NCBI GenBank assembly: GCA_963847445.1
Contig: CAWJZV010000045.1
Coordinates: 1 to 64,000, forward strand
Direction: 5' to 3'
Source of the DNA: an uncultured delta proteobacterium
Lineage (GTDB): Bacteria > Desulfobacterota > Binatia > UBA9968
DNA: 64,000 nucleotides
The position numbers were made by a program, and so were the translations under genes. Numbering within the stretch: the first letter of the stretch is position 1; each line of letters starts with the position of its first letter. Positions 1 to 30,023 of the stretch are shown here, one piece after another. The notes beneath the pieces were generated by a model. The model was not told the DNA's origin and made no database searches. It was given only the letters and a program-made list of their open reading frames with translations.

Positions 1-133
1 TTTATCGGGAGTAATGCACCACGAAGGACCCAACGCGGCGCAGCCGCAAGCAAAGAAAAGAAGAGTGGCCGCAAAGGACGCAAAGGGACGCAAAATAAAT
101 CTCATGCGGAAGTCCGAATGTAGGGGCGTATGG

Positions 134-2077
134 GTGCGTCGGCGATAAGCCGGAGGAAAGTAGCGAATGAAAGAGTCGTACAAGGTAAGACCTAGCCAGT
201 CGCCTTGGCCTCGAGTGATGCGTGTGTCGGGCAACCGGCAGGACGAAGCGTTCACAGAGGTACAGCCGGGCTGTGTATTGAACTCCGAAAACATCTTTTG
301 TGGTGGCCGACCTTGTCCTGACAAGGGGAAGGCAATAGTCATGTCGAACGACAAACGGCGAGTCCGACATGACCCCCACGGAGTCTAAGACCACAGGCAC
401 GGTTGGAAACTTTCCTCACGGAAGCCGAGAGACCCCGGCGACATCCGCTTCTCCCATGGAAGCGGATCGGTCGGAGAAGGCGCGAGGCCACAAGTCCGAC
501 ATGCACGTCGCCGGGGAGTCAGACAGTTCCATAGTACCGGAGAAACCGGCGAACAAGGGCGGCGTGCCGCTGCCTGCGGAGTCGGTGGAGGGAAGGGGAC
601 TGACCAAGGAGAACACCGAGCAATCGCTACTGGACCGGACACAGCGCCGGAACTCGGACGGGACACCGTTCGTACCCAGGTCGCGTGGATTGCTCGGTGT
701 ACGTGAAGCGGCACGGAAGGATAAGAAGCTGAAGTTCACCAGCTTGCTGCACCACCTCACGCCGGAACTCCTGCGAGCGAGCTTCTTCGAACTGAAGAAG
801 CAAGCCGCGCCGGGAGTCGATGGTGAGACGTGGCGTGACTACGCGGAGGATTTCGAACAGCGGATCGACGATCTGCACGGATCGAATCCATCGCGGAGCC
901 TACCGGGCCAAGCCCTCCAAGCGGACCTACATCCCCAAGCCGGATGGCAGGATGCGACCGCTGGGAATCGCCGCCCTGGAGGACAAGATCGTCCAACAGG
1001 CGGCGCGCACGGTTCTGGAATGCATCTACGAACAGGACTTTCTGGGGTTCAGTTACGGCTTTCGTCCCGGACGAAGCCGTCACCAAGCCTCTGGATGCTC
1101 TGTTCGTCGGTATCACGAAGCGCGAAGTGAACTGGATCATCGATGCGGACATTCGCGGCTTCTTCGACAACATCAGCCACGAGTGGCTGATGAAGTTTCT
1201 GGAGCATCGAATCGCCGATCGACGGATGCTGCGGCTGCTGAAGAAATGGCTCAGGGCCGGAGTATCCGAAGACGGCGAGTGGTCCCCCACGAAAGTCGGA
1301 ACGCCGCAGGGAGCGGTGATCTCACCGCTCTTTGCGAACGTGTTCCTGCACTACGTGCTGGACCTGTGGATTCATGACTGGCGAAAACGTCAGGCCAAAG
1401 GTGAAGTCACCATCGTGCGCTACGCTGACGACTTTGTGATCGGATTCCGCGAGGAATCGGACGCCCGAAAATGCTTGGCCGCACTGGGGGAGCGGTTTGC
1501 CAAGTTCGGCTTGGAACTGCACCCGGAGAAAACGCGGCTGATCGAATTCGGACGCTACGCAGAGGAGCGGCGAGCGAAACGCGGCGATGGCCCGCCCGAG
1601 ACGTTCGACTTTCTGGGTTTCACGCACATCAGCGGCAAGACCCGGCGAGGCGACTTCACGATCCACCGCAAAACGTCGCGGAAGAAATTCCAAGCCAAAC
1701 TGACAGACCTCAAAGAGAAACTATCACGGAGACGCACGACGACCTCGCGCAAGTCGGCGCGTGGCTGCAAAGCGTGTTCCGCGGCTGGTGCCAGTACTAC
1801 GCGGTGCCCGGCAACTACGCACGCCTGAAACAATTCCGTGACGCGATCCAAGACATGTGGCTCCGCACGCTGCGTCGACGCAGTCAACGCGGCCGCCGCC
1901 TGACCTGGGAAAAGTTCTCGAAGCTCTGCAAACGCTGGCTGCCGACGCCGAAGATTCTGCATCCTTATCCCGACGTGCGGTTTGCACGTCAACATCCAAG
2001 GTAAGAGCCGTATGCGGTAGTTCCGCACGTACGGATCTGTGCGGGGGGCGGTCAGCAATGACCGTCCCTACCGCGAT
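134..2077 (+). mobile_element. Group II intron (resembles bacterial class E), full length
   Basis: 5' GTGCG at 134. Domain V GAGCCGTATGCGGTAGTTCCGCACGTACGGATC at 2005 (AGC triad). Domain VI GGGGGGCGGTCAGCAATGACCGTCCCTACCGCGAT ends in AT at 2077. Internal RT ORF present. Confidence 0.92.
501..2004 (+). CDS. ltrA: Group II intron reverse transcriptase/maturase (3 frameshifts; start uncertain; no En domain)
   Basis: Pieces in three frames: [68 protein letters not shown], and X-domain GWCQYY..LRRRSQ. The stop codon abuts domain V. Confidence 0.9.
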
Positions 2078-2227
2078 CATACGCCCAGGGGCGGCGGAGC
2101 GGTGATCGCATGGCCGGAAAATTTACGCAGGCGCGGCAAATTCTAATGGATAGCAATGCAGGTTCGAAGGCACGAATGTCGGCGAATAGCCGTCATCCTT
2201 AACTCGTCGTGTCCCCGTAAAGTTGCG

Positions 2228-2452
2228 CGAAAATACATGCGAGGTGGATAATATGCACGGTGAAGAGCCGTTCGGGGATCCGTCTTATCATCGAAAGTGG
2301 CGTATCAGGCCCATCATTCGCGAGACGGCATATCCGAATCCGAGAGTCTTTGGCCGGGCGGATTTCTCGATGCGCCAATGCCAGGAGGGTGGGTTTATGA
2401 GAACCCGCCCCTACGACTCCCGGTAAAAACTCTTTCCCTTTGGTTGCGGATC
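2228..2452. repeat. Degenerate repeat remnants: family-A end, GTAG-type REP hairpin, family-B end
   Basis: CGAAAATACATGCGAGGTGGATAATATGCAC matches the reverse complement of the A end near 31313-31342. Hairpin GGGTGGGTTT..AACCCGCCCCTAC. TTGGTTGCGG matches a reversed B left end. Confidence 0.55.
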
Positions 2453-29683: not shown

Positions 29684-30023
29684 GGTTCTACAGTCTTTCC
29701 TGTGATGCAGGGTTCGAAGATTCCACCGCCGAGGCGCCCTTCGACGTGGCTCAGAACAGACTCCGGGCGCGGAGGAAAGAAATCCTCCCTCGGGAAAAAT
29801 TCCGAACTCTGTACTACTATCCATGATAATTTGCGTCGCCTGCGCGAACTTCGCAATCATGCGATTGCCGCGCCGCCACCCCAGGGCGTATGCAATACGC
29901 CCCTACACAGAAATCCGAACTTTGCGCCCTTTGCGTTCTTTGCGGCCATTCTTCTTTTGGTTGCGGCTCTGCTGCGCTAAGAATTCTGTGTCTCTGTGGT
30001 GAATAATTCTTCATAGGAAACCC
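29684..30023 (-). repeat. Family-C element (copy C2) containing nested family-B copy B5 (29811-29979) with an intact GTAG REP at 29884-29906
   Basis: Ends GGGTTTCCTATGAAG..CATCACAGGAAAGACTGTAGAACC match 47391-47535. Confidence 0.75.

Follow-up and report, generated by a model that had tools for sequence, protein, structure and literature searches.

Group II introns change their targets by guide mutation and favour repeated or mobile DNA, where insertion is harmless. Introns of class IIC insert immediately 3' of a stem-loop, have a short exon-binding site 1 (EBS1), no EBS2 and a CGC triad, and reportedly, following Leon and Roy, occur at terminator and attC stem-loops. Here we analyse a stretch of 64,000 nucleotides, referred to below as the window (positions 1 to 64,000, forward strand, of contig CAWJZV010000045.1, here C45, in assembly GCA_963847445.1 of an uncultured delta proteobacterium; GTDB lineage Desulfobacterota, Binatia, UBA9968), in which a group II intron lies within the loop of a GTAG-led hairpin of the repetitive extragenic palindromic (REP) type. 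We hypothesize, with a probability of about 0.7, that a branch of the clade to which this intron belongs homes into REP loops by base pairing; the window copy itself keeps the ancestral guides and has a broken reading frame.

In Thermosynechococcus elongatus, a single intron diversified into the TeI3/TeI4 families through divergence of its EBS sequences toward new targets, derivatives without an open reading frame (ORF) that share one deletion joint proliferate, presumably mobilised in trans, and other mobile or repeated DNA is preferred as a source of fresh unoccupied sites (PMC2882425, Mohr, Ghanem and Lambowitz 2010). The clade described here resembles TeI3/TeI4 in the divergence of targets by EBS, in the proliferation of ORF-less copies and in the use of repeated DNA. 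It differs in that TeI3/TeI4 are cyanobacterial, carry an endonuclease domain and target other introns and insertion sequence (IS) elements (PMC2882425), whereas this IIE/IIF-like intron lacks that domain and targets the loop of a REP associated with a tyrosine transposase gene (REP-associated tyrosine transposase, RAYT), where unadapted copies are found too. With the class C introns at terminator and attC stem-loops it shares a site marked by palindromic DNA and a protein without an endonuclease domain (PMC1702495), a lack common to intron classes C, D, E and F (PMC4424553); unlike IIC introns, it inserts inside the loop and has a 6-nt covarying EBS1, an EBS2-like site, an EBS3 and an AGC triad. 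The ribozymes of IIE/IIF introns measure 450-700 nt without the ORF, have a 5-nt domain V loop and bear alpha-prime on an extra DId3 stem-loop (Nagy et al. 2013, PMC3753933), and our intron is like them in its small IIB-like ribozyme (674-677 nt in ORF-less copies), its 5-nt domain V loop, its extra terminal DId3 stem-loop, the placement of EBS1 and of the candidate EBS2 within domain Id, and a protein devoid of an endonuclease domain. A REP-like target preference was not found in the available part of that description (PMC3753933), and class F is itself poorly supported (PMC3552965). In the literature, the model name group-II-D1D4-6, to which the intron matches, was found mentioned in the Rfam 15 paper only.

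An association of group II introns with REPs has been described in Pseudomonas putida KT2440, where 2 of 9 intron copies are REP-associated (Tobes and Pareja 2006, PMC1525189); the likeness is one of introns lying beside REPs, as the table in the available part of that paper is a ratio of association only, without position, pairing or class. With REP/RAYT systems (NCBIfam NF047646, Pfam PF01797) the present hairpin family shares its GTAG-led palindromic form, a copy number in the tens, a Y1-transposase-like gene between inverted copies, and paralogues paired with their own stem variants. Unlike in those systems, the REP loop here appears to double as the homing site of a retroelement, and one relative of the intron (L151) sits in a REP inside a RAYT-like gene. 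Apart from the KT2440 association, REP/RAYT sites were not found as intron targets in literature titles and the beginnings of abstracts, a coverage that leaves out subscription journals and supplements; insertion sites relevant to this point may be tabulated in the supplements to Toro and Martinez-Abarca 2013 and Tobes and Pareja 2006. That guide mutations can redirect an intron into repeated DNA is already known; new, as far as we have seen, are the REP-loop target, the coupling to RAYT and the coexistence of adapted and unadapted copies.

A group II intron inside the loop of a REP hairpin

The features that define the insertion and its surroundings are as follows.

34-94, plus strand: 'module A', a purine-rich dispersed repeat often found upstream of the REP hairpin (82% identity over 61 nt, BLAST)
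120-133, plus strand: left half of the REP hairpin, GTAGGGGCGTATGG, the end of the 5' exon (intron-binding sites IBS2 and IBS1 of REP-adapted relatives)
134-2077, plus strand: group II intron (RF02005, RF00029; about 91-92% nucleotide identity to the full-length relatives L124, L038 and L039)
338-373, plus strand: a second distal stem-loop in domain I, which includes 351-357 and does not covary with the exon (base-paired in the Rfam alignment)
369-2004, plus strand: frame of the reverse transcriptase (RT)/maturase, interrupted by 1-nt frameshifts at three places (near 881, 1091 and 1738)
2003-2077, plus strand: domains V and VI
2078-2086, plus strand: right half of the REP hairpin, CATACGCCC, the start of the 3' exon
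2087-2166, plus strand: 'module C', a dispersed repeat behind many REP copies (77% identity, 22 BLAST matches)
29884-29906, minus strand: intact REP hairpin of the same subfamily with a TTG loop, inside the same composite repeat

The intron starts 133 nt into the window, which itself begins at the end of contig C45, and extends over 1,944 nt from GTGCG to CTACCGCGAT, so that the locus reads GTAGGGGCGTATGG (120-133), intron (134-2077), CATACGCCC (2078-2086). Its identity as a group II intron is given by matches to both Rfam covariance models (group-II-D1D4-6, RF02005, at 172-393 with 154.5 bits, E 1.9e-44 and a cut-off of 49; the domain V/VI model RF00029 at 2003-2077 with 43.3 bits and a cut-off of 40), by the GTGCG 5' end, by a bulged A at 2070, 7 nt from the intron 3' end, and by the encoded RT/maturase. 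Domain V has an AGC triad at 2006-2008 and a loop of 5 nt (GCGG-TAGTT-CCGC at 2013-2025, with five loop bases in the Rfam alignment as well) rather than a tetraloop. The ORF-less copies, of 677 nt (L181) and 674 nt (G601), fall within the IIE/IIF size range, and a protein lacking a nuclease domain also agrees with that type. The extra stem-loop at 338-373 occupies a site comparable to the alpha-prime position of IIE/IIF introns and, by analogy, is probably the alpha-prime stem-loop typical of them; a covariation scan for the alpha partner of its loop gave nothing usable. We class the element as an IIB-like group II intron that lacks an endonuclease domain and shows IIE/IIF-type features. The junction within the loop, the 6-nt covarying EBS1 and the AGC triad set it apart from class C.

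The RT/maturase ORF of the window copy is in pieces spread over three frames, which match RVT_1 (108.6 bits) and GIIM (19.7 bits, under its cut-off of 23); no nuclease domain was found in these frames, where only the two named profiles matched. A 218-amino-acid piece scores 204 bits against TIGR04416, whose cut-off of 300 applies to the whole protein. The extra bases at 879-881 and 1090-1091 are missing from the relatives, metagenome relatives included, and the corresponding frame is open in L124 (574 amino acids). The three frameshifts of the window copy may be assembly error (three indels, two substitutions).

The joined exons read GGGGCGTATGGCATACGCCC, which is present in 20 intact copies in the 7.19-Mb assembly and is the commonest variant of the hairpin, so that excision of the intron would, judging from the junctions, restore that variant. 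We observed 61 TAG-preceded hairpins of this stem class in the genome, the TTG-loop form being the second commonest (12 of 61). The left half, TAGGGGCGTAT, occurs 47 times, and the right half is missing in just one of these, the intron-filled copy in the window. The exact hairpin pattern has 36 matches in this genome and recurs in 10 of the 20 further genomes searched from the genus. The hairpin is thus a short GTAG-led palindrome in many copies, and on contig C23 a 207-residue RAYT-like ORF (G000 C23:187496-188116, corresponding to L197:597-1220) is flanked by inverted copies of it, with a third copy in frame inside (in L197 coordinates, at about 583-610 and 1156-1182 on the minus strand and, as the copy inside, at 907-930 on the plus strand). 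This ORF scores 29.2 bits against Pfam Y1_Tnp (cut-off 23) and 70.5 against NCBIfam REP_Tyr_transpos (under the cut-off of 80). Because a Y1-transposase-like gene lies between its inverted copies, the hairpin is, by the sequence evidence, a true REP associated with a RAYT. Two RAYT-like paralogues (C16:5092-5643 and C2:86820-87242) sit with other REP stem variants. The RAYT candidates on C2 and C7 were considered as the cognate gene and rejected, since no GTAG hairpin lies within 3 kb of them; the C23 gene is the cognate one. Among these rejected candidates, L004 passes NF047646 with 88.3 bits (cut-off 80). The REP hairpin in frame in the C23 gene encodes RRGVLPYAH.

An intact relative of the interrupted hairpin, GTAGGGGCGTATTGCATACGCCC, lies in the window at 29884-29906 on the minus strand. 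The similarity between the two copies extends on the left over 61 nt (82%; 34-94 against 29976-29921), with about 25 nt beside the hairpin that differ, and on the right over 90 nt including the 9-nt right half (77%; 2078-2166 against 29892-29803). As genome-wide BLAST queries, the left flank gives 96 matches, the right flank 22 and the 231-nt unit around the intact copy 182. The REP forms the centre of a composite repeat built of modules (window 34-94 and 2087-2166; 29780-30010) with the purine-rich module upstream and a GC-rich module downstream, modules that are also found separately across the genome.

The original prediction had described a group II intron that lacks an endonuclease domain and falls outside class C, inserted in the loop of a GTAG REP hairpin, with an intron-free relative in the same window. 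The Rfam matches, the limitation of the protein matches to RVT_1 and GIIM, the triad and length of EBS1, the junction sequence with the 20 intact copies of GGGGCGTATGGCATACGCCC, and the copy at 29884-29906 all agree with that description. The flanking similarity that it had put at about 90 bp on both sides is real, but less even than stated.

Guide sites, usual target and recurrence at REP loops

Relatives of the intron were sought in 401 genomes of the phylum, where the best reached 64% amino-acid identity, and in a large collection holding one genome per species, from which 80 loci were kept of 534 confirmed, the closest being 73-92% identical. Covariation was analysed in 23 non-redundant relatives with both flanks, the window being left out and 10 near-duplicates dropped, by a blind scan that finds, for each exon position, the column of the domain I alignment most often complementary to it. 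Exon positions -1 to -6 select window positions 317, 318, 319, 320, 321 and 322 in that order, antiparallel and 87-100% complementary, and exon position +1 selects column 386 (83%, four pair types). When pairs are counted directly, EBS1 matches its own exon at six of six positions in 18 of the 23 relatives, at five in 2 and at four or fewer in 3; two of these last have 5-nt loops split by an alignment gap and the third is a tandem copy for which the wrong start was taken. The mean number of EBS1 pairs is 5.57 with the intron's own exon against 2.9 with the exons of other introns, over 15 distinct EBS1 sequences, and EBS3 pairs in 19 of the 23 relatives. Because of the blind covariation and the direct counts, we assign the guide sites EBS1 and EBS3 of the window intron as listed, together with a candidate EBS2.

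305-333, plus strand: domain I hairpin carrying EBS1 (CCTGAC, 317-322; blind covariation, 18 of 23 relatives pairing at six of six positions)
386, plus strand: EBS3 (T), which would pair with A at +1, where the REP has C
294-299, plus strand: tentative candidate for EBS2 (TCTTTT), placed by eye from relatives (L070, L071) in which it pairs with exon positions -12 to -7

The original prediction had proposed ACAAACG at 351-357 as EBS1; in the scan of the 23 relatives that stretch does not track the exon, and EBS1 falls at 317-322. Against the REP, EBS1 of the window copy forms four of six pairs, the mismatches being at its two central positions, and the U of EBS3 is opposite a C. These guides fit the usual, non-REP target of the clade. 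The 5' exon ends of the close relatives read (A)AAGGGG(T/A)C(A/G)GG, mostly with A next, and this ancestral-type target, of the form AAAGGGGTCAGG before the junction and A after it, is common to L038, L039, L040, L045-54, L059, L105, L115 and the ORF-less copy G601 from the same genus. The second copy of the intron in this genome, a 675-nt ORF-less derivative on contig C6, lies in a decayed site of the ancestral type.

Many relatives start with GAAAGCG, and ORF-less copies with GAAGCG or GAGCG, rather than with GTGCG (L056, L058, L061, L070, L071, L079, L080, L085, L086, L106, L108; L002 at about 1512; L199). These unusual 5' ends appear real, because EBS1 pairing independently fixes the end of the exon.

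Metagenome contigs were scanned once with a 5' junction pattern of 18 specified letters, on one strand of the hairpin. Of the 75 stretches returned, a number that could largely be chance (roughly estimated for a collection taken to hold about a trillion bases), 71 are matches by chance to unrelated sequence and four (L124, L151, L156 and L181) are this intron at other REP copies. All four occupy the same position in the REP loop, each has a different upstream flank, and over the first 745 nt of the intron their identity to the window copy is about 80-94%. The full-length copy L124 (1,946 nt) shows both junctions, GTAGGGGCGTATGG on the left and CATACGCCC on the right; L181 is a 677-nt ORF-less copy, also with both junctions, and its deletion joint is nearly that of the C6 copy. 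L151 lies on the sense strand in a REP copy inside a RAYT-like gene, and the homologous site in our genome (C23:187807-187829) is empty.

Three of these introns have guides that match the REP. EBS1 of L156 (CCATAC) pairs with GTATGG at six of six positions, that of L181 (CTATAC) pairs likewise with its own loop variant, GTATAG, and that of L124 (CGATAC) makes five of six pairs with GTATGG and is perfect for a TCG loop variant that is present in this genome. EBS3 is G in all three, pairing with the C at +1, and in L124 and L156 the EBS2 region carries CCTA, which can pair with the TAGG in the GTAG motif. EBS1 of L151 (TTTGAT) makes three of six pairs with the REP and is unmatched. The proposal in the original prediction that the REP serves the intron as a target thus holds in so far as four more insertions were found, three of them with REP-complementary guides, but does not fit the window copy, whose own guides (CCTGAC, T386) suit a non-REP target. 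Close homologues in non-REP sequence, which the prediction had named as speaking against it, do occur: the C6 copy, the copy from the same genus, and L038 and L039 (about 91% nucleotide identity).

Base pairing, hairpin recognition and the origin of the window copy

From these observations we hypothesize that introns of this clade would find their DNA targets by pairing through EBS1 (317-322), EBS3 (386) and probably EBS2 (about 294-299). The ancestral target would have been (A)AAGGGG(T/A)C(A/G)GG with A after the junction, and one branch would have altered all three guide sites so that they are complementary to the REP hairpin apex, GTAGGGGCGTATNG followed by C, with insertion between the second and third bases of the loop. 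Each REP copy would then become a neutral, multi-copy homing site. The window copy lies at the REP position with the ancestral guides retained and its reading frame broken. Mobility by retrohoming, the order of events and the neutrality of the sites are parts of this scheme that we infer.

Several observations weigh against the scheme. EBS2 was not resolved by the blind scan and was assigned by inspection. Guide-matched REP insertions number just three, all on metagenome contigs, and in one of them (L156) the 3' junction is missing because the contig ends. Two of the five REP insertions, the window (4/6) and L151 (3/6), are unmatched, and for the window guides a simple pairing score ranks 76,069 of 14,382,030 genome positions level with or above the REP site; therefore base pairing alone does not explain the window copy and L151. 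In this genome one of 47 REP copies is filled. The junction pattern was not found in 20 other genomes of the genus and 30 others of the family, which is weak evidence because these assemblies are mostly fragmented. The tree, built from the initial 560 nt after masking of the guide columns, is star-like, and the terminal branch of the window copy measures 0.004. A single clade of the five REP-located copies is rejected (approximately unbiased (AU) test, p = 0.00045, the group having been defined once an earlier tree had been seen); the three guide-matched copies as a clade are not rejected (AU p = 0.094).

The exact loop position shared by the window copy and L151, in spite of their poor pairing, would be accounted for if the intron RNA-protein particle recognised an extruded or single-stranded hairpin, much as class C introns do with terminator and attC stem-loops, unadapted introns reaching the apex and their guides adapting later. 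We consider this rather unlikely as the explanation of the pattern, and it is compatible with homing by base pairing. It is in keeping with the many genome positions that score as well or better for the window guides and with the lack of monophyly of the REP-located copies. It is also in keeping with the site of L038, the only one for which folding gave an imperfect palindrome centred on the junction, with 12 spanning pairs and the junction at the same loop position. That fold, however, is ordinary for its composition (z = -0.5), and among the 33 genome-derived relatives with both flanks none places its junction in a loop closed by a perfect stem of at least 6 bp; 5-bp stems are found in 2. 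EBS1 pairing moreover requires that the 5' stem arm be melted, covariation with the loop base in the matched copies is what pure base pairing would give, and insertion falls within the loop, unlike in class C, where it is 3' of the stem. The two unmatched insertions at the identical position leave room for a possible structural or fork-related contribution. In a more general form, REP loops might attract the intron particle regardless of EBS1 pairing, through an exposed loop, a stalled fork or a protein contact, an idea that we hold as tentative and on balance doubtful. If it is true, unadapted introns would land in REP loops repeatedly, as in the window and L151, and selection for splicing from the new exon would re-tune EBS1, EBS2 and EBS3, at once retargeting the intron to every REP. 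The window copy, near the clade consensus, would be a preserved first step of this target switch.

A one-off, off-target insertion that hit a common repeat by chance, the clade and the REPs being biologically unlinked, would agree with the mismatch between the window guides and their site, with the one filled REP among 47, with the non-REP sites of the C6 and same-genus copies, and with intergenic repeats being where introns survive best. It leaves four more independent insertions at the same loop position of other REPs to be explained, three of which have re-tuned EBS1 and EBS3 and two of these EBS2 also, and we disfavour it as very improbable. Nearly as improbable in our view is that intron copies spread among REP loci without reverse splicing, by recombination or gene conversion through the modules or by carriage with REP DNA that the RAYT mobilises, in which case the guides need not match. 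Dispersed modules do flank the REP on either side, the genome has a RAYT-like gene with cognate REPs, and unmatched copies at precise REP positions would be accounted for; yet the flanks of the five REP-located copies differ up to the hairpin, a donor locus with the same unmatched intron is not known, and the first unmatched insertion would still need another explanation. To our knowledge, though no search aimed at it was made, movement of a 2-kb loop by a RAYT is undocumented, which also counts against carriage.

Homing by base pairing remains our preferred explanation for the branch, and within it the window copy has a place of its own. Compared with the unanimous state of five relatives, the window intron has four differences, two of which are the frameshifting extra bases at 881 and 1091, against 31-37 private changes each in L124, L038 and L039; the window copy therefore lies close to the clade consensus. 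A test for recombination showed no mosaic: the sites that side with L124 and those that side with L039/L038 are interspersed and form no blocks; identities in 100-nt windows are similar for L124, L038 and L039. Two origins are most likely for the window copy: insertion of an unadapted intron at an off-target site, as a founder-type event, or exchange of a domain I patch in a copy already resident in the REP. As far as its guides and frame allow a prediction, it probably splices inefficiently from the REP site, and it is probably degenerate and no longer mobile.

Wider occurrence of the clade and meaning of the REP target

The relatives L038, L039 and L115, at 85-91% nucleotide identity to the window intron, come from metagenome-assembled genomes (MAGs) labelled as delta proteobacterium, Nitrospiraceae and Chitinophagaceae, a spread over phyla that reflects either recent cross-phylum transfer or binning errors. 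One Planctomycetaceae MAG (L045-L053, L098) holds at least 10 copies of a related intron, 8 of 10 of them at caaaggggtcagg before the junction and a.tcattg.tt after it, itself a repeated sequence. Introns also lie in or beside one another: L109 has head-to-tail tandem copies, in L065 a second intron starts 9 nt behind the first, and in L079 an intron is inserted into the 5' stem of another copy. The more distant relatives L013 and L020 lie antisense across an apparent Shine-Dalgarno sequence and start codon (cat..ctcct, then gtgcg of the intron). In the contigs of four public metagenome runs we found only relatives of this intron family; no public run contains more than 0.17 of the words sampled from window 1-2400. 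Two of the four show ORF-less joints from 709/714 to 1969-1974, with the ends covered more deeply than the ORF region. Elsewhere in the genome, a domain V match at C11:775-848 (L118; 55.6 bits), near a contig end, belongs to an unrelated group II intron, and a match under the cut-off at C11:94193-94268 to an unrelated or dubious element.

For the window itself the result is modest, a degenerate copy in a REP. For the family it reaches further. Copies at the ancestral target, guide-matched copies in REPs and unmatched copies in REPs coexist within one clade of 90% identity, and L124 is apparently intact; therefore the start of a target switch can be tested. The REP is multiplied and kept uniform by a RAYT encoded by the host, so that an intron homing to its loop would gain a supply of self-renewing neutral sites, and two mobile systems, the intron and RAYT/REP, would become coupled.

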